From assembly GCA_045132055.1 (NCBI GenBank), contig JBGURP010000055.1, forward strand, positions 104,372-168,371: a stretch of 64,000 nt of DNA, given 5' to 3'. The position numbers were made by a program, and so were the translations under genes. Positions 32,194 to 55,540 of this stretch are shown one piece after another. Position 1 is the stretch's first letter, and each line of letters begins with the position of its first letter. Origin of the DNA: Bacteroidales bacterium. GTDB taxonomy: Bacteria > Bacteroidota > Bacteroidia > Bacteroidales > WCHB1-69. The notes beneath the pieces are model-generated. The model saw only the letters and a list, made by a program, of their open reading frames with translations, was not told the DNA's origin and did no database searches.

Positions 32194-32236
32194 TAGACTG
32201 GAGATTGTACCCTGTTTACTGTACCCTGATCCCTGA

Positions 32237-33412: not shown

Positions 33413-33437
33413 TAAAGGTTTTTTCTAAAAATCGCTG

Positions 33438-36846: not shown

Positions 36847-37473
36847 TTATTTTTTTCGTGATTTGCATATTGACAAACAACCATTGTCTTCAGATGGCAA
36901 TATCTGAACATCTATAAATTCATATAATTTTTTTTGAGTTGTGTTACTTGTCAAAATCGTTTCGTCGGTGATTTTTATCCATAAATACATTTCAATAAAT
37001 GGCATATAATCAACTATGGATTTCCCTATTTCAGTCTTACATTGCGCCTCCCAAAATTGTATTCTACTTTTTCTGTCCATACGTAAAAAAATCACATCAT
37101 GTGCTGGATACCTAATACTATCCACATAAACTATTGTTGTTAATGGTGCTATCCGAAAAAACGATGGCAACCAACAGCAGTTTTTAGCATCAACACTATC
37201 ATCGCCCAACACATAAGAATCATTTGTCAATGGGTGTAATGCATGTTTATAAGGTTCGTTGTAAATTTTCTGATATTCTCGAATACAGCACATCGCCGTA
37301 ATACGCAGCATGCAAGGTTTGTCAATTGGCAGATATAGCGTGTCAGTTCTGTTAAAATCCCTGTTGGTATATATTTTTTCAATGCTATTATATTTTCTGT
37401 TCTGAGAAAATATAATATTAACATTAGACAACAAAAATAATACTAAGAAAATTCTAATAACCATTGATTTCAT
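36847..37473 (-). CDS. Putative immunity protein for orphan toxin cassette 1 (secreted)
   Basis: Starts 8 nt after the CT gene stop. Has a signal peptide (MKSMVIRIFLVLFLLSNVNIIFSQ) and low GC. Confidence 0.5.
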   Translation of the reverse strand: MKSMVIRIFLVLFLLSNVNIIFSQNRKYNSIEKIYTNRDFNRTDTLYLPIDKPCMLRITAMCCIREYQKIYNEPYKHALHPLTNDSYVLGDDSVDAKNCCWLPSFFRIAPLTTIVYVDSIRYPAHDVIFLRMDRKSRIQFWEAQCKTEIGKSIVDYMPFIEMYLWIKITDETILTSNTTQKKLYEFIDVQILPSEDNGCLSICKSRKK

Positions 37474-38449: not shown

Positions 38450-38800
38450 TCATAGAACATGTGGTGAAATATTTATTACAATATTTTTTCCCTGTATAAT
38501 AGAATCGGGTGAATAATGAAGAATCAATTGAGAGGTATACCAATCTAAATAAAATGAAGTGTCTGTGGAGTTCTGGAATTTTTTAGAAATCATGTATGAA
38601 TCCCCGTCTTGAAGGTCTATTTGAAAACTCCCTAACACATCTCCTTGGATAGTAACGTCTATCCCAGTAATATTCAAATCTTCATCAAAACATATCGTAT
38701 CTGTCACTTCTGAACAAATAGTATCTATGAGAAATGACTGGGATGAATCATTCTCACAAGATGCTAATGCTAAAGAAGATATAAGCAAAACGATTGCCAT
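38450..38800 (-). CDS. Putative cognate immunity lipoprotein of the resident Rhs toxin tip
   Basis: The ATG lies 1 nt after the rhs stop (TAG-A-ATG). MAIVLLISSLALASC is a lipobox. 116 aa. Confidence 0.55.
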   Translation of the reverse strand: MAIVLLISSLALASCENDSSQSFLIDTICSEVTDTICFDEDLNITGIDVTIQGDVLGSFQIDLQDGDSYMISKKFQNSTDTSFYLDWYTSQLILHYSPDSIIQGKNIVINISPHVL

Positions 38801-38801
38801 T

Positions 38802-41800
38802 CTAATAATCCGATGAGATTTGTACACCATCTTGTATGCTATTTGAAATTTTACGAATAGTTTCTTTATTTCTTATTTCTGATTGGTTAATAGGTTCTCC
38901 ATTAGATTTTTTTATGACATCCTTGCCCGTATTATCTTTTTCGAGAATTATTAAATCCCCATTGTCAATACGTTGTTTTATAATCTCTCCCAATTGTTTT
39001 GGAGAAGCATTTGGATTCTGTTTTCCAATTTCAATTCCGACATCATTATTATGAATATCCATAACTAAATCAGTCTCTATTTCATCAGCAGGAGTACTAT
39101 ATTCATGCGCGTCCGACCATTTTCGAGTCATTTTTTCGCCAACACTTTGAACATTTAGCGCTTGCCACATAGCATGCCTGTAGGCATCCGTTTTTCCTCC
39201 CTTTCCTCCTTCACCCGAAAATGCTTTTTTAGCCATCGAAGAGGCAAGTTTAGCATTCGAGTTTACTTGTATAGCTGTTGGAAATCTAATATCATATTTT
39301 AATATATGTTTCTCCTGTGGATTGAGTGATTTAATTCTATTATACAGAGGTGGTTTTGTTAAATCTTCCCCGTTCGGGTCCACCAACTTTATCGGGTTGT
39401 TAGCACAATAAGTATAAGGCGAAAGAGAGGGATATTTGTCACTCATCGGATCGACGCTCAGCCAGATGGACAGGTCGGAGCTGTAATACCTTGAGCCAAA
39501 GTAAGAATAGCCAGTTTCTGTGTCCTTCTCTTTTGCGGAGAAGGTGAAACGGGCGGCATAATCGGTTATCCGCTGGTTCACGAAGTCCTCGCCCCAAGGC
39601 ATATAATGCAGATGTTGCACGGCAGAACCGTCAGTATAAGTTATCCAAGAAGAACTTCCGAGATGGTCGGTGTGGTACCAGTAGCAATCCTTTTCCTCTT
39701 CCCTTATATCCTTCCATTCGTAAAGGAAATTCAGCAAAGATTCCTGCACTTCAGCCTGTGCATCAAGGCATTCCATCACATCATCGAAAAGCATTATGGA
39801 ATGTTCCTTGTGTGCAACAAACATTTCAGGATTGTCATTTCGGTCCAAGTATTTCAATCCGCCACCGCCTATTCTGCTGGCAATCCGCTCATTCTCCGCA
39901 TAATAATGCTTGGTATAGCCTTTGGGATTGGTTACCAGATACGGTGAGGCATATAGAGTTGGCCTCTTCATGTAATAGTAGTAACGCCACTCTCCATTTC
40001 GGTTCTGCCGGGCAAAATCACCGGTCAGTTTATATATCCTGTCACCGTTGGCGTCGTACTGGTAATATGACAGGAAACCATCGTCCTTAACACCCAGCAG
40101 CCTGTTCTGCTCGTCCCAGCAGAGACGACGGTCGGTATTGTTCAGGGTATTGATGTGTTGCGTCATGTTGCCCTTCACATCCCACTTGAAATATTGTTGC
40201 GGTCCGTTGTCTATGTATGCTAGAGTGTTCGGCTGGCTATTATTGTCATAATGATAGTCATTATGACAATGGACAGGGGCTTGGTTGTTGGAGAAGGGTG
40301 TTTGCGTGTAAGTGTCCGCATCGAGATGTTTTTTCACAATGCGACCATTCGGTTTATATTCCATGTCAAGTTCGTAGTCCACGGGATGATTTCCGTTCCA
40401 TATACCATTCGAGTAATCCAACCTGTACATGTCATCGTATTGATACTCGTTAATGTAAGTGCCTCCCAAGCCGTTGGAGAGCATTCCGGCATTGTTGGCA
40501 ATCATGGTTATGTTGCTCACCGAATCGTATCTGTAGTCAATGTCCTGCATGGGTTCATTTGCAGAAGTCACCGAATAAAGGTTTCTGAGTCGTTGCAGGG
40601 TGTCATACTTGTAGAACGTCTTCGTCCCGTTCCCGTAGTACATCGCAGCTTTCAGTTCAAACTCGTTGTAACGGACGCTGTCGAGATATTTGTAAGGGAA
40701 ACCATTCTTGACACCCGTTATGCTGTTGAGCATACCGCCGCTGTTATAGCCATAACAAACTATCTCGCCATCGGGATAAACCATGCTGTCAATACGGTTC
40801 CAACTGTCGTAAACGAATCTCATATCAAATGTGTAAGGCTGGTTTTCATACGGCAGCGTAAATGTCCGTGTGTTTTCTGTCACTTCTCCCAATTTGCCGT
40901 AAGAAAATGTCTGCCAGCCGGATGCGTCCTCCTGCGATATAACCTTGCCTACTGCATTTCTGACGGCATCGACAGAGGTTCCGTAATTGTAATGCACATT
41001 GTATTCAGGATAATGGGAGCAAAAGATGTCTGAAAGCTGGTTGAAGTAGTATTTATACTCAAGATTTTCTCCCATCTCGTTTGTATGCCTTGTCAGATTC
41101 CCGGCCGGATCGTACTCATAGTAGTCGTTCCCTGCATCCGGATGTTTGCGATGAATCATCTGTCCGAACATGTCGTAGTCGTAAAAGGTCTCGAATCCGT
41201 CAGGGTCGGTGCTTTTCTTCAACTGTCCCAAGCAGTCGTAATCGAAAAAGGTTGTCGTGCCGTATGGGGCCACCTGCATGAGCTGCTGGCCGAGCGTGCC
41301 TTTCAGCACCTGCACGCTGTTATTCATGGCATCCGTAGTGGTCGTGGAAAACACTGTCTTGCCGCCTGTGTTGCCAAAGCCATATTCCATTCTGGTCACC
41401 TCATGGGTGGGAAGCTCCACACGAATCTGTCTGTCCAAAATATCATATTTGATGGAGGTTATTGTGGCAGGGGCAAAGTATGGATTGTACAAGGCGTATA
41501 GTGCAGTGTCCTCAACAAAAGGATGGTATTGCTCCACCGTCCTGCCGAAGCAGTCGTATGTGACACGTCCAGTCACCAGGCTCACCTCTTGCCCGTCAAT
41601 CTCCGCATCTTTCTTTGTCTGCAGCAGGCGGCCTAATCCATCTGTAATAACTGTGGTGGCGATGTCATCGGTGGGATGCTGCGGGTCGTAATGGAATGTG
41701 CGGGCATAACTTTGGATGGTACCGATATTGAAAATGTCAGTGGTGCCATAATTTTTCGGGTGGTATTCCATTTTTATGGTATAAGGCTTGGACGCGTCAA

Positions 41801-44800
41801 TTTCGTATGGAGCTATAATCACCGTAGTCCTGCCCAAAGCATCGTAGGAATACATCATGGCATTGCCATTGATGTCAACGGTTTCCGTAGGTTTCCCGAT
41901 TTTGCAGTCGTAGTTTGCTGTAGAAGAGTACCCGAGCGACAAGTTTTCAACCTTGACAGGATAAGTCCATAGGGTATCATCGTACTGGTATTTAAACTCC
42001 AGCCGCTGTCCGTTGTGGTTTTCAGGCAAAACCGACCATACAAGGTTTCCATACTGGTCATAACTAAACTCATAGTCGGCGGTTTGCGAGCTGTTATGGC
42101 GTTCAAGATGCTGAAGTTTACCAGTGGAATAGTAAGAGGCCGTTCGCTTCTGCACGGTGTGACCAGCGTGGTTGCTGACAATTATCTGCACTGGCAATGC
42201 AGTCATGTTGAGGGGCATTCCCACTGCATAGTCTATCTTTGCCCTGAACCATTCATCAAAATGAGTGGTATCGCCACAGTGTGTATATTCCGTTACATTC
42301 CGCCATCTGTCGTACAATCTCATCACTACAGAAGTGATCTGCGGTAATGAAAGTCCCCCATACCAGTTGGTGATAACGGACTCCTTGGCCACATAGACAT
42401 CACTGCGGGCACAGCCGCCATCGGCGACAACGCTGTCGGCAAAGTCGTGTAAGACGACATCGTACAGATGCTCCACGTATGGGTTGCCTGCAGTATCAAA
42501 CACGCAGTCGCGGGTCTTACGACCGCGTTTGGCGAAATCATGGTTGTTGTATTCTTCCACAGTGTATCGGTAGAGAGTATCTCCCCCTTCCGTGTTGTAT
42601 TGTCGCGTGGTTACGGTTCCGTATCCATAGTCCATGCGCTCGTACCGATCATGGTGAGGGTCGGCATAGACGAATTTTGTATGGGAGACAGATCCGGCCA
42701 AGGGGGAGTTCGGATCCTCCAAGGCCAAGGTGTCAAGATTCCAGGATCGTTGGGGCTTTTCATAGCATGGCTGCGAGAGGGCATAGTCCAGTTCTATTGT
42801 GCTACCAGTGAAGTTGGTTACCTTTTTCAAAAGGTTGGTCTTTCCAGCCTGGTTGTACCGGACTGACATGCTGTTTTCCGATGAAGATGTGACGTAATCC
42901 ACATAGCCGTCCCCGTTAATGTCGGTAAGTTGAACGCTGTCTTTGCTAAAACTTTTTCCATAAGGGGAACCTGAAATGCCCACACAGACTTTCAATATAC
43001 TCCAGAATGTGAATCCGAGTGTCACAGACAGGTCCACGGATTCGCTATACGACTTGCCATGGCTGATTTGCTGGATGGTCGTGACCGTATCCCAGCCGGA
43101 CCACCGGCCGGCACCTTTGTTGTACTTGACCCGTATGCCTGTCGAAATCTTCTCCAGTAAATCAGGAAGTCCGTCCCCGTTGAAGTCGGTCAGCATCTTA
43201 TCGGTTTGATTGCGGGAAAGGTTCACTCCGACACCGCCGCCGATACTTGCCTGTCCCACATTGAAATTTCCCCCTAAGCTCAACCCATAGTTCTGGCTGT
43301 TCCCTTCCCTCACTGCAGTCACGCCCCAATTTTCAAAGGGATTGAATCCGTAACCCATATTGAGGGCGACACCTCCGACAGCATTCACCTTGTCGGGCAG
43401 TCCGTCACCGTTCATGTCCATCCAAGTAAATGCGGTGTTGTCGCTACCTCCGCCAAGACTGGCTCCAACGTTGCCAGATCCATTGAAGCTGATTTTGGCA
43501 CCCTTGGGATTGTTGGAGGCGTTTCTGGAGGGTGTAGAATAACTCCCTCCGAAGTTTGCACCTTCGGAGATTGTGTTCGAAGACGACACAATCTGCACAT
43601 GCGAATCGAGACTGCTCAATGGGCCAATGCCTCCCCATGGTTGCGAATACTGAACATAAACTTGGCCAATGATGTCGGGATATTTGTCCCCGTTGAGATC
43701 CATGTAGTCTGTCAAGATGGTGTTTTCACCCGTTGAATGAGAAACCCCTACGGAAATTGGCACAACAGGAATGGAAAGACTCAAAGAGTGGTTCTTCAGT
43801 TTTGTCATGTTCTGTTTCCTGACAGTTTTCACTTCAAAGCCTTGAGGAACCACAGGCACGGGATGGTCATATTCCACGATGTCTGCAGTGATGCTGTCTG
43901 TCACATACTCTGGTATTCTGGTGTTGGACATAGTGTCACGGACAATATAGTTTATATTTCCGTATCCGACCCACGCACCGTGCCTGCTGTCAGGCTGCAT
44001 TTCCACCCAGCCAGTTCTTTGGCTTAGAGGGTTGTATCCACCTGCCGATGAAAATGCCTGCGTAATAGTGGACTGTTCTTGAGGATGATCGGTTTCCTGA
44101 CTCGGTTGGAAAGCGCGGATGGCAGCCGTGTCGGATTCTGCTTGTGTCTGGTCTGCAGGATGTGTTCGCAAATCCACCACAAGACGGGACAGTTTTATGA
44201 CAGAGTCCTTGATAGCAATCCCGCCGACAGTGTCGTTGTTGTTATAGGCAAACTGTCCCCAGCCCCTGTACAAAGGCCCGAAAAGCCAATGGTAAACCGA
44301 ATCAATGGGGGTTTGTTTATAATTGTTTACAATAGCTTGTACCGGCGGGTAATAGTGAATGGTGTCTGTCACAGGATTACCGTTGATGGTGTCGGGAAAC
44401 ATGTATTGGATATGCGGCCGTACGTCGAAAGAACCGTAATTGGTCGCCAACAAGATTAATCTTATATAATCATTCTCTTTCAAGGAATCACTCCTGTTGA
44501 TGGTTAGGCTTTGGTTTCCACGTAAATCATATGTGAGTGGCGTAAAACCAGTGTCTTTGCCTAATACGACTGTAAGAACTGCAGTGTCAGGAAGAAGTGA
44601 ACGGGGCAAACATTCAATTGTCATGGTGTACCGGGAACTATTTTTGTGCGCCTGGAAAAACATTTTTCCACTTACAAGATAGTCCTGCTCCGAATTATAA
44701 TGATATGCATCCAGCTGAACAACCGAATCGTTTTCAAAGCTCGTGTAGGTAATATCCTGTTCCCATTTCACCTTGTCAAAGGATCTGTTCTCACCCGAAA

Positions 44801-47800
44801 TGAGTCTGAACATTACGATGTCATTTTCTCGAACATTTACCCCTGTAATAGTGGTATCATGTATCACATGTATGCTGTCGGGGATGGTGTCTCGCACAAG
44901 GATTTCCGGTGTCGTGGAACTGTGAAGACGGTACTTTCCGTCAACACGTATGCCCCGGCACACTTGGATAGCATACTGCACACCGTCGCATCGCTTTGAT
45001 TGCGCATGGCTTCTGGAACTATCACTGAGCAGAGTGATACCAGACGAAATACTGACAGTACCGCTATGCTGTGCAACCCAGACCTTCACTGTCTCCAAAT
45101 CCGGATCTGAGGGAATAGGTGTACAATGGATAGATTTCCTATATATTTCCAAACATCCTGTTTCGCTATTGTGATTCATTCCTGTGGGATTACAGTCTGA
45201 ATGCCTGAACACACACTCGTACATGCCTGTATTCATGAGACTGTCTGACAATGCGGCGGCATAACTGCTATCACCAACCTCCTTAATTTCAATACATCTA
45301 TCAAACTCCCACTCCACGGTACAGGCCACGTTGTCATCAACCTCACCGTCGAAAATAATTCCCCCGCACTCCCCTGGTATCGTCACAATGGAATCCTCTG
45401 GGGCCGCCCCACCTTGAGAACTGACCATGGAATAATAATTCCGGAATTTGACAGTGTCATTTGTTGTGACATTAAAGTACACCCCATCGTCGGTCACAAT
45501 GTCCGGAAGTCCATCGCCGTTGACATCCGAAAAATACACGGAAGTAGTTGAAGTGGTCTTGGGCCAGCTTCCACTATACGAGCATCCTGCAGAGGCCTGT
45601 AAGCCCCAGGTGGTGGTGCTTCCTGTTTCAGTCAGAAAGTCTGTGACACCGACGACAGGCACTGCAGGGCCGTAATGGAAAGACGTTTCACTATCAGCAA
45701 TCTGTTTTCTGCAATAAAGTTTTTTTTCTGATTTGAACAGCTTGTCTGCAAGCCCATCGCCATTGAGGTCCACCAATGTGAGAATACCCTCGCTCTTGGA
45801 GCGGCTGTAATTGAAATTGCCGCCCACGCTAAAGGAAGTCAATGGGACCACGGGACCTATGCCGATGGTTGCAGTTCCACCGACATTCCAGCTTTTGCCT
45901 TTGGTGGCGCCCAAAGCAGTTGCACTGCCCTCATTACCCACATTAAACGCATTGGTAATGAAAAAACTATGAAGATCATCGTTGCTGCTGCTAAGGTTTA
46001 TGGATGTTGATGGACCGAACAGAGCATTCCCTGAAGGAGCATCAAAGTAGTCGAAATGGGTACGAGTCCCGGAGAATCCCAGCTGGTCCAACCTGGAAAG
46101 TTCAGTATTGCAACCGAAGAAATCCTGAATGTTGTCAATACGCACGACATCAGTCAGACGAGTTTTGTATTGAGATTCACGTTTGTTTTCAGTATAGATC
46201 ATATAGCGTCTGAACACCTCATCATCAAAAGATATCTCAATGTTACAAAGCTCTTCAGCTGTAACTTCCTTAAAACCCCTGTTGAAAGAGACTGTCATGT
46301 CATCCCTTCCCCCTTTTCTGACAAAATGAATCTTGTAACGCGAAGGTGCATCTTCATGATAGGTATAACAGATACTGTCTATGTAAATCTGCTTTCCCAT
46401 GACGCTGGCGTTGCTAACTCCCGGATGCTGTATCACAGAATAACAATATCTTACGCCGTTGCCCGAAGGATCCACACTTTCTGCCAGGGCCCAGTGGGCG
46501 ATGGCACCGGATGAGTTTCCAGCACCAGTGCGCAGCACACAGCTGTTGTTCACGCCATTGTCCAAAGCATACTTGCCGTAGTAGTCCGTCACGCCGTTCT
46601 TGTGCGTCACTGTCCACCAGTAGCTGTCGGGTCCGCCGCCGTGGCGCACGATGCTGTCGTAGGCCTCGTTCTTGCGCGGATAGAACTGTTCTTGGCCATC
46701 ATGGTCTAGGATATTCCTGTTTGTCCAGTGATTGGTGCGGTGCGGCATGTCACGGAACCTGCCCGCCACGCTGTCGTAAGATACCAGCTGTTCGCCCTCA
46801 AAAACATACACTTCGCTTTCCAAATCGCTGTCGTATCTCGGCACGCCCCAGCGTGTCTCCACTGTGATGGAGGGGATGGAGATGTCCCAGCCCACACCGA
46901 GCCAGCCGTTGCCGCCACTGCTGCTGTAAGTCAGCGCGAGGTTGGGCTGCATGCCCTGACGTCCGGCAGGAATCTCGATAGGATAGCTCAGGTTGGCCGT
47001 TCCCATGTTGTTGGCGGTCGGCGGCTGCATCAGCGTCAGCCCCTCCAGCGGGTCGGCAGCCTTCAGCTCCTTGATGCTCGTGGGCGTGTAGGCCGATGTC
47101 TCCGGCATCTCCGGGGTCTTCAGCACCGCGTTGATGAAGTCCAGCGGCGATTCGCCGCCGCCCTCGCCCTGCGCGGCCACGGACAACATGCCCTGCGCCT
47201 GCGCGAGCGCGTCCTGCGGGCCGACCATGGCGTCCTGCGTGTGCGGCAGGCCTTTATCCCACGGCCTGAACCGCGAGCAGACCAGCAACGCCTCCGTGTT
47301 CACCGAGTCGCGCTGGATGGCCACCCATCTTCGATACTGCCTGTCATAGACATAGGTCTGTATGTCATCCTCGGTGAAGCCCTGCGGCAGCAATGATGGG
47401 TCATAGGGCACTGCAATAATGAACTCTCCTGGAAGGGGATTCACACGGTAGCCTGCCGTCTGACCGTTCCCGTCAAACCCGCCCGTCACGTTCACCATGC
47501 CCGCGTCCAGGGGCGGAAGCTGCGAGGGCGTGAGCTCTGCCATCGCGCCGGATGAAAGCGCCAAAGGCGGCGCGTTCAATGCGGAATTTGGAATGGGAAA
47601 TGGGGAATGGTTCCCCGTTCCGATTTCTTCTTCCGGAATAGAGATGCAGTGCTTGACTGCGTTGACTTTCTGCAATCTAGCCGCCGGTTCGTTCAAGCTG
47701 TCGTTCAAAACGTTGAGTCCCGAATTGTAGCTATATGCCCTATAGGAGCGGGTGGATACACCTTCTTTTGCCGTGTCTATGGAGAACAGCATGGCAAGCA

Positions 47801-47843
47801 ACGCTGCAAGGACGGATAATATGGCCAGTAGATATTGTCTCAT
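38802..47843 (-). CDS. Giant Rhs/YD-repeat polymorphic toxin (SpvB/TcB-like N-domain, FG-GAP/VCBS repeats, RHS core, variable C-terminal toxin)
   Basis: 3013 aa. N-terminal signal/anchor; SpvB-type motif LTYSSSGGNGWLGVGWDISIPSI; at least five D(L/V/M/F/I)NGDG(L/Y)(A/P/V)D repeats; many YD repeats; RHS core end FTFSAKEKDTETGYSYFGSRYYSSDLSIWLSVDP...NPIKLVDPNGE; ~190-aa C-terminal tip. Confidence 0.93.
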   Translation of the reverse strand: MRQYLLAILSVLAALLAMLFSIDTAKEGVSTRSYRAYSYNSGLNVLNDSLNEPAARLQKVNAVKHCISIPEEEIGTGNHSPFPIPNSALNAPPLALSSGAMAELTPSQLPPLDAGMVNVTGGFDGNGQTAGYRVNPLPGEFIIAVPYDPSLLPQGFTEDDIQTYVYDRQYRRWVAIQRDSVNTEALLVCSRFRPWDKGLPHTQDAMVGPQDALAQAQGMLSVAAQGEGGGESPLDFINAVLKTPEMPETSAYTPTSIKELKAADPLEGLTLMQPPTANNMGTANLSYPIEIPAGRQGMQPNLALTYSSSGGNGWLGVGWDISIPSITVETRWGVPRYDSDLESEVYVFEGEQLVSYDSVAGRFRDMPHRTNHWTNRNILDHDGQEQFYPRKNEAYDSIVRHGGGPDSYWWTVTHKNGVTDYYGKYALDNGVNNSCVLRTGAGNSSGAIAHWALAESVDPSGNGVRYCYSVIQHPGVSNASVMGKQIYIDSICYTYHEDAPSRYKIHFVRKGGRDDMTVSFNRGFKEVTAEELCNIEISFDDEVFRRYMIYTENKRESQYKTRLTDVVRIDNIQDFFGCNTELSRLDQLGFSGTRTHFDYFDAPSGNALFGPSTSINLSSSNDDLHSFFITNAFNVGNEGSATALGATKGKSWNVGGTATIGIGPVVPLTSFSVGGNFNYSRSKSEGILTLVDLNGDGLADKLFKSEKKLYCRKQIADSETSFHYGPAVPVVGVTDFLTETGSTTTWGLQASAGCSYSGSWPKTTSTTSVYFSDVNGDGLPDIVTDDGVYFNVTTNDTVKFRNYYSMVSSQGGAAPEDSIVTIPGECGGIIFDGEVDDNVACTVEWEFDRCIEIKEVGDSSYAAALSDSLMNTGMYECVFRHSDCNPTGMNHNSETGCLEIYRKSIHCTPIPSDPDLETVKVWVAQHSGTVSISSGITLLSDSSRSHAQSKRCDGVQYAIQVCRGIRVDGKYRLHSSTTPEILVRDTIPDSIHVIHDTTITGVNVRENDIVMFRLISGENRSFDKVKWEQDITYTSFENDSVVQLDAYHYNSEQDYLVSGKMFFQAHKNSSRYTMTIECLPRSLLPDTAVLTVVLGKDTGFTPLTYDLRGNQSLTINRSDSLKENDYIRLILLATNYGSFDVRPHIQYMFPDTINGNPVTDTIHYYPPVQAIVNNYKQTPIDSVYHWLFGPLYRGWGQFAYNNNDTVGGIAIKDSVIKLSRLVVDLRTHPADQTQAESDTAAIRAFQPSQETDHPQEQSTITQAFSSAGGYNPLSQRTGWVEMQPDSRHGAWVGYGNINYIVRDTMSNTRIPEYVTDSITADIVEYDHPVPVVPQGFEVKTVRKQNMTKLKNHSLSLSIPVVPISVGVSHSTGENTILTDYMDLNGDKYPDIIGQVYVQYSQPWGGIGPLSSLDSHVQIVSSSNTISEGANFGGSYSTPSRNASNNPKGAKISFNGSGNVGASLGGGSDNTAFTWMDMNGDGLPDKVNAVGGVALNMGYGFNPFENWGVTAVREGNSQNYGLSLGGNFNVGQASIGGGVGVNLSRNQTDKMLTDFNGDGLPDLLEKISTGIRVKYNKGAGRWSGWDTVTTIQQISHGKSYSESVDLSVTLGFTFWSILKVCVGISGSPYGKSFSKDSVQLTDINGDGYVDYVTSSSENSMSVRYNQAGKTNLLKKVTNFTGSTIELDYALSQPCYEKPQRSWNLDTLALEDPNSPLAGSVSHTKFVYADPHHDRYERMDYGYGTVTTRQYNTEGGDTLYRYTVEEYNNHDFAKRGRKTRDCVFDTAGNPYVEHLYDVVLHDFADSVVADGGCARSDVYVAKESVITNWYGGLSLPQITSVVMRLYDRWRNVTEYTHCGDTTHFDEWFRAKIDYAVGMPLNMTALPVQIIVSNHAGHTVQKRTASYYSTGKLQHLERHNSSQTADYEFSYDQYGNLVWSVLPENHNGQRLEFKYQYDDTLWTYPVKVENLSLGYSSTANYDCKIGKPTETVDINGNAMMYSYDALGRTTVIIAPYEIDASKPYTIKMEYHPKNYGTTDIFNIGTIQSYARTFHYDPQHPTDDIATTVITDGLGRLLQTKKDAEIDGQEVSLVTGRVTYDCFGRTVEQYHPFVEDTALYALYNPYFAPATITSIKYDILDRQIRVELPTHEVTRMEYGFGNTGGKTVFSTTTTDAMNNSVQVLKGTLGQQLMQVAPYGTTTFFDYDCLGQLKKSTDPDGFETFYDYDMFGQMIHRKHPDAGNDYYEYDPAGNLTRHTNEMGENLEYKYYFNQLSDIFCSHYPEYNVHYNYGTSVDAVRNAVGKVISQEDASGWQTFSYGKLGEVTENTRTFTLPYENQPYTFDMRFVYDSWNRIDSMVYPDGEIVCYGYNSGGMLNSITGVKNGFPYKYLDSVRYNEFELKAAMYYGNGTKTFYKYDTLQRLRNLYSVTSANEPMQDIDYRYDSVSNITMIANNAGMLSNGLGGTYINEYQYDDMYRLDYSNGIWNGNHPVDYELDMEYKPNGRIVKKHLDADTYTQTPFSNNQAPVHCHNDYHYDNNSQPNTLAYIDNGPQQYFKWDVKGNMTQHINTLNNTDRRLCWDEQNRLLGVKDDGFLSYYQYDANGDRIYKLTGDFARQNRNGEWRYYYYMKRPTLYASPYLVTNPKGYTKHYYAENERIASRIGGGGLKYLDRNDNPEMFVAHKEHSIMLFDDVMECLDAQAEVQESLLNFLYEWKDIREEEKDCYWYHTDHLGSSSWITYTDGSAVQHLHYMPWGEDFVNQRITDYAARFTFSAKEKDTETGYSYFGSRYYSSDLSIWLSVDPMSDKYPSLSPYTYCANNPIKLVDPNGEDLTKPPLYNRIKSLNPQEKHILKYDIRFPTAIQVNSNAKLASSMAKKAFSGEGGKGGKTDAYRHAMWQALNVQSVGEKMTRKWSDAHEYSTPADEIETDLVMDIHNNDVGIEIGKQNPNASPKQLGEIIKQRIDNGDLIILEKDNTGKDVIKKSNGEPINQSEIRNKETIRKISNSIQDGVQISSDY
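39368..39548 (-). repeat. Rhs core-end homology box, copy 4 of 7 (in the full-length gene)
   Basis: Encodes FTFSAKEKD...VDPNGE. Positions 39427-39470 form a 44-bp perfect inverted match to 52699-52742. Confidence 0.92.
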
Positions 47844-47895
47844 AGATATTTTATTTCTTAATTCCTTAGTCCCTTGATTTCACAACTGTCGTCTG

Positions 47896-49476
47896 TCAGT
47901 TCACCACCATCTTGAGCGTTTTGCGCTCAGTGCCGGAGGCTATGTCGATCAGGTAGTTCCCGGCGGTCTGCACTTTGCCTGCGAAACGGTAACTGCTCTG
48001 CCCCTTGCCGTCCATTTTCAACAGCACCTTGCCATCTGCATCATACACAGTGACAAACACATCCTGTGCTTCGGGGTATATTATCCCCACAGTGAAGTTC
48101 CCGTGGTTAGGGTTGGGGTGCAGTTTGTAATGGGCGATTTGCAATGGTGAACTTTCAATTTGTGATTTGGAATGGGTAATGTACAATGATTCCTTATTGC
48201 AACCATTTGTTTGGCAGAGTGCTCCATCTCTTTCTGATTTTCTGTTTTCCATACCCCATTCTCCATTGGACTCCCCGTTTGCCGCCAGCGCCTTCGGCGT
48301 GTTGGTGTCCGGCATCGCCACGGCGAAGCAGAAGAAGTCACGGCCGTTGAGGTCGGTATCCCAGTATATGCCGTCGTACAGGCAGCGCCCTGCGGTGTCC
48401 GTGCCCGAACACTGTACCTGTTCCATTTCCCCTGCGGGGAATTCGCCCGTGCCGCTGCGGTCGATCAACAGGACAGGCGCGACGCTGTCCCGCACTGCCG
48501 CCGTGTCCAGCAGGATGAACGTGCCGTAGATGCTTGCGTCGCCCGTCACCTGCGCCATGCTGCGCCCGACAACCTCGTAGGTTTTCCCGTCCTGCGTGTA
48601 TATTGTGGAGACGGTGCGCAGACTATCCCTGCACCCGAATAGGATGAAATCCCCGTCAGAGATGGCTGCAGCATTGTCCTCGTTTGTGTTCGCGAGCTGG
48701 CCCATGCCGAAAACCGTCTGGCCGTCTGCAAAGTATGTCTGCTTCTGGCACAGCCCCGTGGAGTCGTCCCGGCCCACTCCTGCGATGGAAATGCAGTAAT
48801 CGGGATAGTCGGTGAAGTTCCAGATGACGTTCCTGCGGCTGTCGAGATAGTCGGTCTGCAAAAGGGTCACGCCGTATTTCACGGCCAGGTAGCTGATCCA
48901 CTGGATGACGGCGGTGTCGCCGATGCGGCTGCCGAAGTACATCGCTTCGGCGATGCGCCCGTCCAGCAGCAGGGAATCCGCCGCGCAGAGGGTCAGCACG
49001 GGGGCGCACACCTCGGGTGTCCGCCACGACTGCGAGAGGTAGTTGACAACGGGCTTCAGGCGGTTGGCGGTGTCGTAGGTGATCTGGCCGTTGTCGTTCA
49101 GGATGCGCTGCGTGGTCTGCCCGATGCGTTTGGCCGAGTCAACCTGCACCTGCCACAGCGCGTTCTCGCCGAGGGTGTCGTATGTCTCATACACCACAAT
49201 CACGTCCGCATGCCGCGAGTCGTTGATGCCCAGCGGCAGAGTGAAGGTCTCCGCGCCGCCGACCGCGAAGCATCTGTTGAAGTTCATGCGGGAGAAAGCG
49301 GCGGGCATTGCGCCCGATGACGGCACGGCGTCGAACCCGTTGCCGGAGACATCGTGCCACGACGATGTGCCGAGTGCCGCGCTGTCGGCGCGCAGCCACG
49401 CCACGGGGTGGACGATCTGCGCCTTGAGCTGGCAGGAAAGGGCGATTGCGGCAAAAAGGATCAGGGCTTTCTTCAT
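47896..49476 (-). CDS. T9SS C-terminal-domain (Por tail) secreted protein with a LamG-like N-terminal region
   Basis: Signal peptide, a WHDVSGNGFDA motif of LamG-type jelly rolls, and a C-terminal LHPNPNHGNFTV...KMVVN typical of T9SS sorting domains. It ends 52 nt upstream of rhs. Confidence 0.75.
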   Translation of the reverse strand: MKKALILFAAIALSCQLKAQIVHPVAWLRADSAALGTSSWHDVSGNGFDAVPSSGAMPAAFSRMNFNRCFAVGGAETFTLPLGINDSRHADVIVVYETYDTLGENALWQVQVDSAKRIGQTTQRILNDNGQITYDTANRLKPVVNYLSQSWRTPEVCAPVLTLCAADSLLLDGRIAEAMYFGSRIGDTAVIQWISYLAVKYGVTLLQTDYLDSRRNVIWNFTDYPDYCISIAGVGRDDSTGLCQKQTYFADGQTVFGMGQLANTNEDNAAAISDGDFILFGCRDSLRTVSTIYTQDGKTYEVVGRSMAQVTGDASIYGTFILLDTAAVRDSVAPVLLIDRSGTGEFPAGEMEQVQCSGTDTAGRCLYDGIYWDTDLNGRDFFCFAVAMPDTNTPKALAANGESNGEWGMENRKSERDGALCQTNGCNKESLYITHSKSQIESSPLQIAHYKLHPNPNHGNFTVGIIYPEAQDVFVTVYDADGKVLLKMDGKGQSSYRFAGKVQTAGNYLIDIASGTERKTLKMVVN

Positions 49477-49502
49477 GGCGGAATATATTTCTTGGATGAT
49501 TG

Positions 49503-49510
49503 CAAAGATA
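49503..49510 (-). promoter_or_regulatory. -7 promoter box (TATCTTTG on the minus strand) for the T9SS-protein/rhs operon
   Basis: The reverse complement of caaagata matches TAnnTTTG, 26 nt upstream of the ATG at 49476. Confidence 0.5.
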
Positions 49511-49540
49511 GCATTTTTTTAATCCGGTTGCATTTTTTTG

Positions 49541-50665
49541 TCAGAAACGGATTTTGTTCGCCGCCAGTATCTTTCTGGCATCCGTCACGTGCGTGTAGCG
49601 GTCAGTCATGGAGATTGAGTGGTGCCCGGCAAGGTCCTTGACGTACTTCGGGGGCATTCCCGATTCGAGCATCTCGGTGATGCCCGTGTCCTTGAGGGAG
49701 TAGAAATGGAACGTGGAGGGCAGGGAGAGGTGTTTCAGCATCCTGTGCCAGGCCTCGAACAGGTTTCGGGTGGTGTAGGACTTCGGGCCGGGTTTGAAAT
49801 GCCGGGAGAATATGAAAGTATGGGGAGAGAGCGTCTCCGCCCGCAGTTTCCTGAAGTGTCCGAGCACATCGTCGGACAGGGCTATCACACGTTCCTCATG
49901 GTTCTTCGACACGTTTGGCGGTATCCTGAGCATCCCCTCGTCAAAGTCTATGTCCCGCAGTTGGAGCATGAGTATCTCCTTGGGCCGCACCAGATGCTTG
50001 AAGCAGAGTTGCATAATGGCTATGTATTCCGTCATGCCTCTTTTCGTGAAGTAGTCGAGGATTTTTTTGCGCTCATGTTTTGGGATGGTTGTCCTATGTT
50101 TTTTTTCTTTCCTCTTGCCTTTGAACGGTTCGAAGGGGTTGGATGGCAGAAGACCGTCGCTGACAAAGGACCGGAACATGCTCTTCAGGAACTGGAGCAT
50201 GTTGTTGTAGGCGTACGCGCTTCTTCCGCCTTTGCCGTACTCCTCCAGCAGTTCGGCGGCCTGCTTGCCCGTGAAGTAGGCACAAAGCCAGTCGGACAGG
50301 CCTTTCTTCTCGCACCATGTGAGAAAGAACGCAAGCTTCGACTTGTAGCCCCGTGTCGAGTCCTTCCGGAGGGTTTCCTGTTTTTTGCGGTAGAAGTCTT
50401 CGGCGGCCTGCTCCACGGTTTGCGGTCTTCTGTTCGACTCCTCTTCCCCCGTCAGAGGGTTCCAGCCCGCGTAGAGCCGTCTGTTGGTCTCCGCGCACAG
50501 CAGGCGCGCATAGCGCAAGCGCTCGCGGCGGTCACGGATGCGGTTGCAGCGGATCCTTCTGCGCTTGAGCCTTCCGCTGACAGGGTCGAGTACGTGGTAG
50601 CTGACATAGACCTCCTTGTTGGAGGACACTTGTGCCGGGATGAAGTCGATGAATGGTGTTGTCAT
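49541..50665 (-). CDS. Tyrosine-type site-specific recombinase/integrase
   Basis: 374 aa. The C-terminal catalytic region has LRPKEIL (Arg), HFYSLKDTG and LAGHHSISMTDRYTHV (His/Arg/Tyr box). Confidence 0.9.
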   Translation of the reverse strand: MTTPFIDFIPAQVSSNKEVYVSYHVLDPVSGRLKRRRIRCNRIRDRRERLRYARLLCAETNRRLYAGWNPLTGEEESNRRPQTVEQAAEDFYRKKQETLRKDSTRGYKSKLAFFLTWCEKKGLSDWLCAYFTGKQAAELLEEYGKGGRSAYAYNNMLQFLKSMFRSFVSDGLLPSNPFEPFKGKRKEKKHRTTIPKHERKKILDYFTKRGMTEYIAIMQLCFKHLVRPKEILMLQLRDIDFDEGMLRIPPNVSKNHEERVIALSDDVLGHFRKLRAETLSPHTFIFSRHFKPGPKSYTTRNLFEAWHRMLKHLSLPSTFHFYSLKDTGITEMLESGMPPKYVKDLAGHHSISMTDRYTHVTDARKILAANKIRF

Positions 50666-50919
50666 GATGGTGAATTGAAAAGGTTAGGAATGCTGCCTTG
50701 CAAGCATCTTGCTTGCTGGAATAAATATGGTTATAATCGTATTTTGGTTTAAAACACATTATGGATAAATCCTTCGCGAAACCCTCCGGTGCATTGCCGT
50801 GGTGCAGAACTGGCGCAGCGGCACAGGTTCGCAAGCGGTTGTGGATGCGGCGTTCAGAAAATACATGGTGCAACATCGCGGCGCAAATATGGCCATTTTT
50901 TTCTTTTGCGAAAAAATCT

Positions 50920-50927
50920 TATTTTTG
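50920..50927 (+). promoter_or_regulatory. -7 promoter box (TATTTTTG) upstream of orphan cassette 4
   Basis: TAnnTTTG match 19 nt upstream of the ATG at 50947. Confidence 0.5.
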
Positions 50928-50946
50928 CCACGATAAGTTGTTGCGT

Positions 50947-51762
50947 ATGAATCAGCCTGTTACATATAGTAAAACATTTCTGCCCGACACGCTTGCGGAG
51001 ATTTTCACCTTCTCCGCAAAAGAGAAGGACGCAGAAACCGGCTATTCTTACTTTGGCTCAAGGTATTACAGCAGCGATCTGAGTATCTGGCTCAGCGTCG
51101 ATCCGCAGGCTTCGAAATATCCTTCTTTGAGTCCGTACGTGTATTGCGCGAATAACCCGATAAAGTTGATGGATCCGAATGGGGAAGATTATGAAACCAT
51201 TATAAATAAAGATAATAAAACCATAACCATTAAAGCAATATATTATGCAAAAGATTCCGATAAGAAAAACCTCCAAAAAGGACTTGATGCTTGGAATAGC
51301 CAATCCGGCAAATACACTTTCACTATAGAAAATGGTGAAAATGCAGGAACTTATACCATAAACTTTGAACTAACCATGGCAGAGAGTGACGGGACAAGTA
51401 GCCCTATCGATGGCATTTCGAATTCTTTCGAGATGGTTTCAGATAACATTGGTGGGCGAGGTCTAACTAACGACGGCCGTACTATTAAAGTAAACAATAA
51501 CGCTCCGGACAGGACGATTATTCACGAAATAGGTCATACATTAGGAAATGGAGAATTTAATCGCGGAGTAATGCTACAAGGAGGGAATAGTGACAAAATC
51601 TTAAAGGAAAACATATCAACTACGCTTAATCAAGCAGGCTTTCATAGTCTGGGTAATTTCTGTGGCTCTCAAATCACAGATCCACCATCACAATCATGCA
51701 ACACTTTTTGTAATCAAACCACTAATGAACCCATATATGGGATAATTAACAGAAAAAGATGA
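50947..51762 (+). CDS. Orphan Rhs C-terminal toxin cassette 4 (HExxH metallopeptidase-like tip)
   Basis: MNQPVTYSKTFLPDTLAEI leader, then FTFSAKEKDAETGYSYFGSRYYSSDLSIWLSVDPQASKYP...NPIKLMDPNGED, then a variable domain with IIHEIGHTLG. The upstream part of the track ORF is GC-rich non-coding-like sequence. Confidence 0.8.
   Translation: MNQPVTYSKTFLPDTLAEIFTFSAKEKDAETGYSYFGSRYYSSDLSIWLSVDPQASKYPSLSPYVYCANNPIKLMDPNGEDYETIINKDNKTITIKAIYYAKDSDKKNLQKGLDAWNSQSGKYTFTIENGENAGTYTINFELTMAESDGTSSPIDGISNSFEMVSDNIGGRGLTNDGRTIKVNNNAPDRTIIHEIGHTLGNGEFNRGVMLQGGNSDKILKENISTTLNQAGFHSLGNFCGSQITDPPSQSCNTFCNQTTNEPIYGIINRKR
51004..51186 (+). repeat. Rhs core-end homology box, copy 5 of 7 (inverted relative to the main gene)
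   Basis: Starts with the exact 26-mer TTCACCTTCTCCGCAAAAGAGAAGGA. Confidence 0.9.
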
Positions 51763-52454
51763 GGACTCTTGTTTCAGTTTGCCAAATTGTATTTTTTTCC
51801 TTCTTGTTATATTCTTGCACAACAACAGCACATTATCAGAAATATAACAAAGCAATTGAAGAATTGACAAAACAGTATGCAAATAATATAGACACTGCGT
51901 CCTCAGTCATTCAAGTAACTGGAGTGGTCAAAGTCGATTCTTTCTTCATCCATTATAATAGAAATATTGATCCTGACAAACTATGGAAATACAATATTTT
52001 CAAAACAAAATCTGATGTGCTTTACTTCAGTACAACCCCATGCGATGTCATTGATTGCGGAGCCCACCAAAAACTCTTTAAAGAATGTATTTTTGATTCA
52101 ACATCTTTTGTCATTATTTCCTCTAGTGACTTTTTAAGAAAACATATTATTCCATTCGTTAAAGACACCATGCTGAAAGAGAATTTAAGAGTTATTGTTG
52201 ACAATGATGACATACTACCTATAGGTGTCGTAAATTATAAAAGAATTTTTTTTAAGCACAATAAATATGCTTGTGATGTGGCCTTCTATAAAACAAATTG
52301 TTTTTTGCGCGTACAAATGCCTGTATGGTTTTTCAATTTGACATACTCTAAACATAGTTGCCCACCCATATTTTATTTTTTAGGAGAAGAAGAATACTAT
52401 GACCTATATTTGAATGTGATTGTGCCCTTACCAGCGGATATTCAAGACATCTAA
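51759..52454 (+). CDS. Putative immunity lipoprotein for cassette 4
   Basis: The ATGA overlap with the toxin stop suggests translational coupling. Lipobox FLLYSC. Confidence 0.5.
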   Translation: MRTLVSVCQIVFFSFLLYSCTTTAHYQKYNKAIEELTKQYANNIDTASSVIQVTGVVKVDSFFIHYNRNIDPDKLWKYNIFKTKSDVLYFSTTPCDVIDCGAHQKLFKECIFDSTSFVIISSSDFLRKHIIPFVKDTMLKENLRVIVDNDDILPIGVVNYKRIFFKHNKYACDVAFYKTNCFLRVQMPVWFFNLTYSKHSCPPIFYFLGEEEYYDLYLNVIVPLPADIQDI

Positions 52455-52509
52455 AAATACAATTTTGTATCTTCCACATATTGCTAATTAACCTTAATTA
52501 ATTATTTTG

Positions 52510-52517
52510 TAACTTTG
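52510..52517 (+). promoter_or_regulatory. Cassette promoter box (TAACTTTG), 4 nt upstream of the orphan 5 ATG
   Basis: The TTTTGTAACTTTGCAGC-ATG context is shared with 36790-36797 (minus strand) and 55529-55536. Confidence 0.55.
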
Positions 52518-52521
52518 CAGC

Positions 52522-53388
52522 ATGAATAATGGTAGATTTGTAGCATATTATTCAGCAACAGTCTGCGATGGGAATCCATATTGCAAAAGCAAGAGTATGT
52601 CTTTGGATATAGCAGGAACTTTCACCTTCTCCGCAAAAGAGAAAGATGCCGAAACCGGCTTTTCTTACTTTGGCTCAAGATATTACAGCTCCGACCTATC
52701 CATCTGGCTGAGCGTCGATCCGATGAGTGACAAATATCCCTCACTGAGTCCGTATGCTTACTGTGCGAATAACCCAATAAAGTTGGTGGATCCGAATGGG
52801 GAAGAGATTGGAGATTTTTATGATCAATGGGGAAGAAAAATCGGTTCAGATGGACGTGCTGATGATAATGTTTTCATTGTAAGTGATCAAGCTTCTCAAA
52901 ACAAGATAAAAGAGAATAGGCGAAATCACGTAAATACCAATTCAGCCGATGTAAAAGTTGACGTGACTACCACGTATAATGTCTTAAGTGAGGCTTCAGA
53001 TGTTTATGAAAGAACTGTAAAAAACGGAGGATATAACGAAGAAGCATCAGCATTACCTACAGATGGAGGATCCGCTGATTGGGAAAGAAAATCTGGAGTT
53101 AATGAACATAGTGTTGAAGTCCCAATACCCCAAGGAGATGTCCTTATTCATTCTCACCCGTTAAAAAAAAGGAATCCATGTGATTACACATCCCCGAAAG
53201 TGATAAGTGATAAAGATAAATCACATTTTGAAAAATTTAAATTAAATATTGTAGTCGGAAATGACGGAGGTAACTGTAGCGGTGGAGTATGGTCTGGCCG
53301 CAAACCAACAGCATCTTTTTATGACTCGAGCAGCAAAAATCTCATAAATTTACTTTTCGATGTGGTGAAGAAAATAGTCAACCGATAA
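52522..53388 (+). CDS. Orphan Rhs C-terminal toxin cassette 5 (JAB/MPN-like tip)
   Basis: 33-aa leader, then FTFSAKEKDAETGFSYFGSRYYSSDLSIWLSVDPMSDKYPSLSPYAYCANNPIKLVDPNGEE, then a variable domain with IHSHP...SDKD. Confidence 0.8.
   Translation: MNNGRFVAYYSATVCDGNPYCKSKSMSLDIAGTFTFSAKEKDAETGFSYFGSRYYSSDLSIWLSVDPMSDKYPSLSPYAYCANNPIKLVDPNGEEIGDFYDQWGRKIGSDGRADDNVFIVSDQASQNKIKENRRNHVNTNSADVKVDVTTTYNVLSEASDVYERTVKNGGYNEEASALPTDGGSADWERKSGVNEHSVEVPIPQGDVLIHSHPLKKRNPCDYTSPKVISDKDKSHFEKFKLNIVVGNDGGNCSGGVWSGRKPTASFYDSSSKNLINLLFDVVKKIVNR
52621..52806 (+). repeat. Rhs core-end homology box, copy 6 of 7 (inverted relative to the main gene)
   Basis: Positions 52699-52742 are the perfect reverse complement of 39427-39470 (44 bp). 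Confidence 0.92.
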
Positions 53389-53399: not shown

Positions 53400-53990
53400 A
53401 TGTTGAACAGTAATAAGATCTTTCAAAAAATATTTGTATTATTGTTTTTATTTTGGCCATTTACAATTATTTGCCAAAATAACAATCCAAATGATCCGTT
53501 AGACACGTACAGTGCTCCTTCATTCGCCTATTTAACCGTAATAGATGGGAAAATTCCATATTCTGTTCTTTCAAAACTATCGTTTAAGCACAATAAGCTA
53601 AACGACACTATAATATATAATTGCTATTATATCAATAACAGACATTATTCAGAAAATCTGATGATGCTGGATTCCATACCCGATTCAGTCACAGTTTCGA
53701 TAGATGTTTTTTTTGAAGAACCAATAGGATATAATAAAGCTAAAATGCATCATTATCATGATGAAATGCCTCTTGGTAGACTTAAACTTGTACAGATATT
53801 ATCAATCACCAATTTCCGTCACAAACAATACTATATGCATTATGTTTTTGATCCACCATTAAGAACATATCCTTTGTATGAAAGACGCTTTGGCAATAAG
53901 AATAAATTTTATTCGAGAGTGTTCTCATGTTTTTATCCGTATTCATATAACAAATGGTCAAAAGGAGGAAGAACAAAACCGTCATATTAA
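53400..53990 (+). CDS. Putative immunity protein for cassette 5 (secreted)
   Basis: Starts 11 nt after the toxin stop and has a signal peptide (FVLLFLFWPFTIICQ). Confidence 0.5.
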   Translation: MLNSNKIFQKIFVLLFLFWPFTIICQNNNPNDPLDTYSAPSFAYLTVIDGKIPYSVLSKLSFKHNKLNDTIIYNCYYINNRHYSENLMMLDSIPDSVTVSIDVFFEEPIGYNKAKMHHYHDEMPLGRLKLVQILSITNFRHKQYYMHYVFDPPLRTYPLYERRFGNKNKFYSRVFSCFYPYSYNKWSKGGRTKPSY

Positions 53991-55528: not shown

Positions 55529-55536
55529 TAACTTTG
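55529..55536 (+). promoter_or_regulatory. Cassette promoter box (TAACTTTG), 4 nt upstream of the truncated leader ORF
   Basis: TTTTTTGTAACTTTGCCAC-ATG, the same architecture as at 52510 and 36790. Confidence 0.5.
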
Positions 55537-55540
55537 CCAC

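Follow-up and report, generated by a model that had tools for sequence, protein, structure and literature searches.

A tyrosine recombinase between opposed arrays of Rhs tip cassettes in Bacteroidales: a candidate inversion switch for toxin tips

Described systems closest to the locus

On the current view of polymorphic toxins, Rhs included, they diversify slowly, by RecA-dependent and often destructive exchange with orphan tips. We describe here a 22.5-kb Rhs island of an uncultured rumen Bacteroidales bacterium, lying in a stretch of 64,000 nucleotides (nt) which, taken as a whole, is called the window and to whose positions all coordinates refer. The island contains one full-length Rhs gene, a tyrosine recombinase gene and toxin-tip cassettes arranged in two opposed arrays, all of them linked by a coding repeat, the box, which corresponds to the end of the Rhs core. 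Recombination at the boxes very probably passes tips between the main gene and the two arrays; that this exchange is the work of the recombinase, with inversion as the main route, is a proposition on which the sequences compared leave us evenly balanced.

The closest functional relatives are the orphans of enterobacterial Rhs loci (e.g. in Salmonella Typhimurium LT2), which are promoter-less or weakly expressed tip-immunity modules placed behind the full-length Rhs gene; they lie in direct orientation and are exchanged by homologous recombination, with duplication or deletion and with no associated recombinase (PMC3967940, PMC7043789). As in those loci, the modules of the island start with core-end homology, and recombination there puts a new tip on the shell. 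Unlike in those loci, the second array is inverted, a dedicated recombinase and a leader with its promoter sit at the pivot, and exchange can be conservative. A second relative, rAID-1, is a Bacteroidales system in which a tyrosine recombinase stands beside a low-GC orphan array used in interbacterial defence (Ross et al., 10.1101/471110; PMC12247911); it is defined by a recombinase at least 44% identical to B. fragilis BF9343_RS08045 and by at least two co-directional genes of at most 41% GC directly downstream (10.1101/471110). The likeness lies in the host order, in a tyrosine recombinase by short low-GC orphan genes tied to interbacterial toxins, and in integron-like features. However, rAID-1 arrays follow the recombinase in the same direction, are made up of immunity genes with conserved motifs between them and are unattached to a full-length toxin gene, whereas in the island the low-GC array is divergent from the recombinase, each cassette has an intact tip behind a coding Rhs box, and the genes that follow the recombinase, those of a DUF8202 protein and of the Rhs, have a GC content of 46-58% in place of the low-GC genes of rAID-1.

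Gene-altering inversions are known from R64 Rci/pilV, the Bacteroides SusC/SusD shufflon and hsdS of Type I restriction-modification systems, and the survey that covers them makes no mention of Rhs (PMC9881135). The island shares with shufflons a tyrosine recombinase gene beside alternative 3′ coding segments, inverted repeats inside the reading frame and new in-frame C-termini; it differs from them in its toxin and immunity cargo, in having a 183-nt coding box instead of a 19-31-nt site, and in an invertible segment that holds a 9-kb gene body and the recombinase itself. In the sap locus of Campylobacter fetus, a promoter-bearing segment inverts between opposed cassettes sharing a coding box, and one cassette is expressed at a time; there the shared box stands at the 5′ end, inversion depends on RecA and has no recombinase of its own, and what is made is a surface-layer protein, whereas here it is a toxin. 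With integrons (IntI, attI, Pc) the island has in common a recombinase divergent from a promoter and first site, a one-directional array of short cassettes and a first position that is the most variable; the differences are that the recombinase is not IntI, that no attC hairpins were found, that the boundary is coding and that a second array and a large toxin gene are included. In agreement with the first-pass annotation, which knew of no inversion-type Rhs tip switch, full-text literature searches found no published description of such a switch, of a recombinase-associated one or of an Rhs shufflon. The parts are individually known, and their combination, a shufflon plus Rhs orphan exchange, is not described in the literature searched.

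The box, the recombinase and their joint conservation

On the minus strand, the island reads in the order recombinase, TAtcTTTG element, DUF8202 protein, Rhs, presumed immunity gene and three orphan cassettes; divergent from the recombinase, a TAttTTTG element and a 19-codon leader precede three plus-strand cassettes. The full-length Rhs (38802-47843, minus strand, 3013 amino acids (aa), from Pfam matches and the list of open reading frames (ORFs)) has a signal peptide, SpvB, FG-GAP, TcdB_midN and RHS repeats (PF05593), and ends in a DUF6973 tip (tip DNA 38802-39365). Its last 61 core codons (FTFSAKEKD...DPNGE) make up the 183-nt main box (39366-39548, minus strand), delimited by repeat search and alignment. 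The box is present seven times: four copies are on the minus strand, in the main gene and in direct orphans 1 (38094-38276), 2 (36468-36650) and 3 (35035-35217), and three on the plus strand, in inverted cassettes 1 (51004-51186), 2 (52621-52803) and 3 (54114-54296). The three inverted copies had already been named by the first-pass annotation and are recovered by a repeat finder at 82-89% identity, segment 39364-39549 pairing with 52620-52805 (186 nt, 89%), 51003-51190 (82%) and 54112-54274 (85%); the count of that annotation fell short on the minus strand, by the three boxes of the direct orphans. The perfect inverted match of 44 nt that it had reported is likewise there, 39427-39470 being the exact reverse complement of 52699-52742, and exact blocks of 33-44 nt link the main box and the plus boxes of the window. 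Exact copies of the 26-mer TTCACCTTCTCCGCAAAAGAGAAGGA stand at 39523-39548 and 36625-36650 on the minus strand and at 51004-51029 and 54114-54139 on the plus strand, and it recurs with 1-2 mismatches at 38251 (minus), 52621 (plus) and 35192 (minus), i.e. seven matches with at most 2 mismatches compared to 0 expected from 100 shuffles. We considered a 7-bp dyad within it, CCTTCTC-N7-GAGAAGG, as a core site of the recombinase and rejected it, since the dyad is lost in relatives whose boxes encode E-R-D (GAACGCGAC).

All seven boxes align without indels and encode FTFSAKEKD...YCANNPIKLVDPNGE (up to Y-C-A-N-N-P-I-K-L-V-D-P-N-G-E), so that box-to-box exchange keeps the frame, which bears out the in-frame fusion logic of the first-pass annotation. 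Every box closes with NNPIKLVDPNGE, which has the PxxxxDPxG pattern of an Rhs core end, and the six orphans, which share the box at 71-89% identity, start with this core-end homology, as Rhs orphans do. The left edge of the homology is sharp in all seven copies: box nt 1-18 are invariant and the invariant run begins one base upstream. Main and orphan boxes are alike in how well they conserve a second block, CCGATGAGTGACAAATAT (nt 99-116), and synonymous-site conservation over 99 unique boxes revealed no outstanding DNA motif at the 5′ core. Beyond the box, the seven tips are unrelated (DUF6973, Peptidase_M91-like, M57-like, JAB-like and three without family) and all the orphan tips in the window are intact ORFs. 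Behind each tip there is an ORF of 126-231 aa; none of these seven ORFs has a family match in Pfam, and the immunity role is assigned to them by position.

The interval between the main box and the plus boxes contains, as ORFs and Pfam confirm, what had been annotated at first: the Rhs body, a protein of the type IX secretion system (T9SS), its promoter box and the recombinase. The T9SS protein (47896-49476, minus strand; Pfam and NCBIfam) is a DUF8202 protein with a T9SS C-terminal sorting domain (Por_Secre_tail); in about 90 loci it is kept as the upstream partner of this Rhs type, at 55-86% identity, and a Bacteroidetes-type -7 promoter element, TAtcTTTG (49503-49510, minus strand; sequence and motif scan), lies 27 nt before its ATG. 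On the other side of the recombinase, leader-1 (50947-51003, plus strand; defined by comparison of recombinase-bearing loci) is a 19-codon start, MNQPVTYSKTFLPDTLAEI, that runs into the first inverted box, and its -7 promoter element, TAttTTTG (50920-50927, plus strand), is at -84 from the box start.

The recombinase (49541-50665, minus strand, 374 aa) matches PF00589 at 5e-25, over 170 of 172 profile positions, and the phrog_1 integrase family at 1e-50. R227, K254, H348 and Y357 are kept in all aligned clade sequences (55-56 out of 56), and dN/dS, the ratio of nonsynonymous to synonymous substitution rates, ranges from 0.07 to 0.29, a signature of strong purifying selection. The clade (at least 54% identity) is found solely in this Rhs context, while homologues of at most 47% identity are prophage or small-element integrases. 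The gene is internal to the island, 5.3 kb from one end and 16 kb from the other. In the reading of the locus that we prefer, it is a domesticated phage-type tyrosine recombinase at the pivot.

About 100 related loci (numbered L001, L002, etc. below) were compared, all of them metagenome assemblies from gut or rumen Bacteroidales; DUF8202-centred scans gave 90 loci, every one from uncultured members of this group. Recombinase homologues at 54-94% identity are all found in the order inverted tip array, recombinase, DUF8202, ~3000-aa Rhs (L002-L010, L108). Among dereplicated lineages, 26 combine the recombinase with at least one inverted box immediately before it, 22 have neither (recombinase-free lineages being counted only with at least 3.5 kb of upstream sequence) and none is mixed (Fisher p = 4e-14). 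The layout of gene-altering inversions, a recombinase adjoining inverted repeats inside alternative coding segments, is therefore found in 26 lineages. Two relatives have an inverted orphan but no intact recombinase gene: L020 retains the orphan next to an internally deleted recombinase (2093-2545) whose catalytic middle is gone, and in L058 the ORF listing shows no recombinase gene left beside it. Some DUF8202-Rhs loci that are 97-99.9% identical differ in the presence of the module (L014/L015, L037/L050), and the breakpoint is the 5′ end of DUF8202, from which it follows that recombinase and inverted array are gained or lost as a unit. With about half of the roughly 50 sampled lineages carrying it, the module is common in rumen Bacteroidales. 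In each of the 25 distinct recombinase-bearing loci, TAnnTTTG at -83 to -85 (-84 in 22) and a 19-codon leader precede the first inverted box, so that the module supplies a second, fixed expression site. As to the first-pass claim of a recombinase-linked inversion switch, the geometry and the link to the recombinase (26/26 vs 0/22, the architecture being kept down to 54% identity) thus stand; catalysis by this enzyme and inversion as its route are what we infer.

Several relatives have additional genes between recombinase and DUF8202, one for a LytTR-family regulator (354-422 aa, opposite strand) and one for a lipoprotein-like protein of 149-170 aa (L006 11305-13152, L020 2580-4479, L058 1149-3086); these could regulate the system. 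Others are decayed: in L062 and L086, an internal deletion of the Rhs (L062 10907-13078) fuses about residue 250 to the last ~470 core residues, and in L095 (2861-3392) DUF8202 is cut at residue 134 and runs straight into a box. Short-read contigs typically end inside a box (L001, L002, L008, L009, L024, L029, L036, L049, L060, L111) and recombinase-bearing contigs are mostly shorter than 5 kb; since the contigs end inside boxes, the loci are fragmented and under-annotated in public assemblies, for which the module accounts. We rejected these contig ends as evidence of inversion, because shared k-mers account for them.

Cassette movement and the possible routes of exchange

Comparison of orthologous loci, which had been suggested as a way to find alternative orientations, did reveal one. 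L031 is co-linear with the window over the RluB flank (window 28850-33556) and has the same island boundary; its outermost orphan has a leader and box homologous to window 34958-35221, and its leader-1-recombinase-DUF8202 segment matches window 51188-48702 in reverse. Judged by these alignments, its layout is the arrangement predicted from an inversion between the main box and plus box 1. Cassettes are also shared between main genes and inverted arrays. L062 and L086, which are identical to each other and come from different samples, have a backbone 99.3% identical to that of L063 and co-linear with it over 5.9 kb; the 1.9-kb unit after the L062 main box (tip, next ORF and next leader) recurs in L063, turned round, as the first inverted cassette, 97.8% identical and with no change in the tip protein. 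Similarly, what is inverted orphan 2 in L045 serves L018 as its main cassette. Two cassettes of the window have leader-1 counterparts in other species: plus cassette 2 is as a whole 84% identical to the leader-1 cassette of L050, and direct orphan 1 (box 38094) gives an 80% match to the leader-1 cassette of L067. The leader-1 cassette differs in each non-duplicate close pair (L006/L007, L018/L045, L019/L022, L031/L050, L048/L049, L062/L063, L067/L081), even though the synonymous divergence (dS) of the recombinase is 0.004-0.012 in some of them; the cassette at this position turns over fast. Some inverted-array orphans have 200-600 residues of Rhs body before the box (L050 4376-5155, L066 368-, L081 870-2865, L086 80-) and, from their sequences, look like displaced former main-gene ends.

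We may picture the locus as a two-armed store of Rhs tip and immunity cassettes around one expressed Rhs gene, with the recombinase at the pivot. The DUF8202-Rhs operon would be read from its own promoter and, across the recombinase gene, the conserved promoter and leader-1 would be read into the opposite array. Recombination of the core-end box with any box of the opposite array would invert the Rhs-DUF8202-recombinase segment (11.5-15 kb here) and swap everything distal to both boxes: the Rhs shell would receive a new tip together with its immunity gene, the old tip would move behind leader-1 or another leader, and no cassette would be lost. As both arrays stay downstream of one of two fixed promoters, every immunity gene can stay expressed. 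The site of the recombinase would be the conserved first ~26 nt of the box, and inversion, rather than excision and reintegration, would be its usual route; we infer further that switching is frequent enough for phase variation. If the main box and that of cassette 1 cross over within the 5′ core, the predicted 54-mers are GATTATGCCGCCCGTTTCACCTTCTCCGCAAAAGAGAAGGACGCAGAAACCGGC at the body-tip 1 junction and ACGCTTGCGGAGATTTTCACCTTCTCCGCAAAAGAGAAGGACACAGAAACTGGC at the junction of leader-1 with the old tip. Recombinase-driven inversion is made likely by the co-occurrence of enzyme and inverted array, the selection on the recombinase, the fixed leader-1 site, the flipped relative and the fact that an inversion loses no immunity gene. 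The fullest version of the proposal, which we hold to be somewhat less likely than not, is that a dedicated recombinase makes loss-free, reversible inversions which give one Rhs shell the choice of at least seven tips, with the immunity genes of both arrays transcribed from the operon promoter and leader-1, i.e. a phase-variable interbacterial weapon whose bearers' siblings would be mutually immune. Perhaps the recombinase takes up and sets free cassettes as well, in which case the locus would be a shufflon/integron hybrid. If true, conservative inversion by a recombinase would be a new way to vary the toxin arsenal within a clone, programmed gene-altering inversions would extend from surface and specificity proteins to interbacterial weapons, and a mechanism would be suggested for the unexplained recombinase-associated orphan arrays of Bacteroidales (rAID).

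Nine strain pairs combine leaders of 95-100% identity with unlike tips. Their boxes start to differ at nt 14-27, which means that the whole box travels with the tip and that the crossover falls within the conserved 5′ core (box nt 0-27 in all nine). In seven of these nine leader-side pairs a longer identical block exists elsewhere in the box, and in several of the nine the recombinases are near-identical (dS 0.004-0.05). Junctions in the 5′ core despite longer blocks are, by the alignments, not a RecA-favoured pattern. The F-S codons of the core are TTCTCC in 58 of 67 unique orphan boxes vs 22 of 36 main boxes (p = 0.006; the sequences are not independent).

A number of observations weigh against recombinase-driven inversion. 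The two main-gene exchanges that could be resolved have their junctions mid-box, at nt ≥88 (T5) and at nt 124-143 (T9), in mosaic boxes, and in sequence such junctions look like homologous recombination or gene conversion rather than use of the 26-mer as a site. The exchange between main and inverted boxes claimed by the first-pass annotation is supported as to its partners by the shared cassettes of L062/L063 and L018/L045. Of the 12 unique main boxes in recombinase-bearing loci, five differ in their 5′ core (e.g. TACACGTTTAGT) from the usual orphan form, the fraction of such cores is similar in recombinase-free loci, and the dyad of the 26-mer is not conserved in relatives. In its box II, the recombinase has Y322-x-x-K325 where HxxR is canonical, and this YxxK is shared by the clade and the prophage-integrase relatives (residues 319-328 read F-Y-S-L-K-D-T-G in the recombinase and these relatives, compared to H-V-L-R-H-A-F-A in XerD). 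The recombinase of L031 is 72% identical to that of the window while RluB is 96% identical, so the flip could also stem from foreign DNA that recombined at the inverted boxes and took the place of the central segment. Strains with backbones 3-4% apart have T5 cassettes that are 100% identical, which implies horizontal spread of cassettes and not inversion in situ. Finally, the evidence on orientation is between genomes (L031/window; L062/L063), and many contigs break inside the box; assembly misjoins at boxes are possible, several informative contigs being k141 MEGAHIT paths, while L062 and L086 are identical across two samples. Look-ups for the other orientation gave, for RluB, one SRR25030090 contig that has the same arrangement and ends inside a box and, for other window proteins, no record of YitT and the recombinase on one 2.2-kb contig only; RluB homologues (P0121, P0122) have only empty or differently filled sites and no further flipped state. 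A search for the reciprocal product (the T12 tip on a full-length Rhs) with the four concatenated L062/L063 tips returned 7 matches, none of them informative.

Could the locus then be an integron-like platform? On that account, the enzyme would add and remove cassettes as circles, each made of a box, tip, immunity gene and the following leader, at the point where leader-1 meets the box, much as IntI does at attI beside promoter Pc, and chiefly for collecting immunity genes and storing tips; the Rhs segment would invert now and then as a side effect, or not at all, and a new main tip would arrive only rarely, through homologous recombination or through integration of a cassette at the main box. 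The arrangement is suggestive of it: the recombinase points away from a first site with a promoter and from a low-GC array (33-38% vs 46-58% for the backbone), the first position has the fastest turnover among near-identical strains, the segment common to L062 and L063 comprises precisely one such unit and runs from a box to the leader that follows, the plus array of the window ends in a leader with just the first 9 nt of the core, identical cassettes occur in strains with diverged backbones, and the recombinase module is present or absent among DUF8202-Rhs loci 97-99.9% identical. We nevertheless hold this account, the strongest of the alternatives, to be unlikely. The recombinase scores 37 bits against the integron-integrase model TIGR02249, whose cutoff is 265, and 20 against NF011946 (cutoff 435), and thus does not qualify as IntI; attC-like structured sites were not found at the locus, where the repeat is a protein-coding box; intact orphan tips suggest toxin use and not immunity alone; the flip of L031 requires an inversion or a replacement in reversed orientation; and inverted sites on one molecule are still expected to invert. 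The last point shows that integron-like behaviour and inversion are not exclusive: a recombinase acting on directional sites present in both orientations would invert, excise and integrate.

Another possibility is that RecA-type homologous recombination and gene conversion between the 183-nt boxes do all the exchange, in the manner of enterobacterial Rhs orphans or of sap inversion in Campylobacter fetus, the recombinase being a co-inherited passenger that has some other part in tip exchange or none. The mid-box junctions and mosaic boxes of both resolvable main-orphan exchanges, the exact 33-44-nt blocks shared by main and plus boxes of the window, the main-box 5′ cores, no more orphan-like in recombinase-bearing than in recombinase-free loci, and the missing conserved dyad are all what one would expect from it. 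But a passenger would hardly be in perfect co-occurrence with the inverted array in 48 lineages, nor be under strong purifying selection in a clade restricted to this context, and all nine leader-side junctions fall in the first 14-27 nt in spite of the longer identical blocks available in seven; we regard this possibility as quite improbable. Least credible of all, with hardly any weight in our estimate, is that the recombinase is the mere integrase of a mobile island carrying the Rhs locus, with inverted arrays irrelevant to its function. It is true that the locus is a 22.5-kb insertion compared to the empty site of related genomes, and that the nearest relatives outside the clade are prophage integrases. 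However, the recombinase is at both its distances from the island ends an internal gene, there are no flanking direct repeats of 10 nt or more and no tRNA gene nearby, about half of the similar DUF8202-Rhs loci have no recombinase, and within the clade the gene always adjoins leader-1 and DUF8202. The first-pass annotation would have read a constant position of homologues at island ends, next to direct att repeats, as simple integration; its close homologues never take that position, and the island has no att repeats at its flanks.

Island boundaries and remaining features

The island (33464-55952, both strands) is delimited by the aligned flanks of L112 and L114, which match window 64000-55953 and 33463-25921. 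Compared to the empty site of the related genome L114, where the FeS_assembly_P gene and rluB are just 52 nt apart (9949-10000), it is an insertion between these two genes; L112 has at the same place an unrelated 1.4 kb (8530-9949) with a DUF559 gene and a gene for a 183-aa protein. Compared base by base with the empty site, the two junctions have no direct repeat as long as 10 nt, and a search around the island found no tRNA gene, att-like repeat or duplication of the target.

On the minus strand, the presumed immunity gene behind the main tip is a small ORF of 126 aa (38450-38830), so named by position only and with no Pfam match. Then come, from the ORF list, box scan and Pfam, direct orphan 1 with its own tip (37482-38360) and an immunity-like ORF of 208 aa (36847-37473), direct orphan 2 with the Peptidase_M91-like tip (35856-36785) and an immunity-like ORF of 211 aa (35282-35917), and the outermost direct orphan 3, which has a weak JAB-like tip (34441-35268) and is followed by an immunity-like ORF of 207 aa (33708-34331). 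On the plus strand, the same sources give inverted cassette 1 with a metallopeptidase-like tip (51004-51762) and an immunity-like ORF of 231 aa (51759-52454), inverted cassette 2 (52522-53388) with one of 196 aa (53400-53990), and inverted cassette 3 (54069-54899) with one of 199 aa (54908-55507). Both arrays are at 33-38% GC.

Two orphans that are not first in their arrays have their own -7-like element, TAACTTTG, 4 nt before the ATG (52511-52518, plus strand, for inverted cassette 2; 36797-36790, minus strand, for direct orphan 2). These elements sit inside the motif TTTnGTAACTTTGCnnnATGAA, and both orphans may, on this sequence evidence, be individually transcribed. The orphan promoter motif GTAACTTTGC-N-ATG was found in the window only and not in the other loci compared.

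The plus array ends in a leader without box (55541-55720, plus strand, 45 aa), assigned by comparison of leader families: its family and length match those of the leader of orphan 35856-36785, and a promoter-like TAACTTTG precedes it at 55530-55537. It reads TTCAGCTTC (F-S-F), the first 9 nt of the core, and then diverges; it may be a half-site that marks the distal cassette boundary, or a footprint of array construction. Outside the island, two genes past rluB, a conserved ORF of 296 aa (29896-30786, minus strand) has a faint RHS_repeat flag in the annotation of L111, absent from those of L112 and L114, and is probably unrelated to the island.

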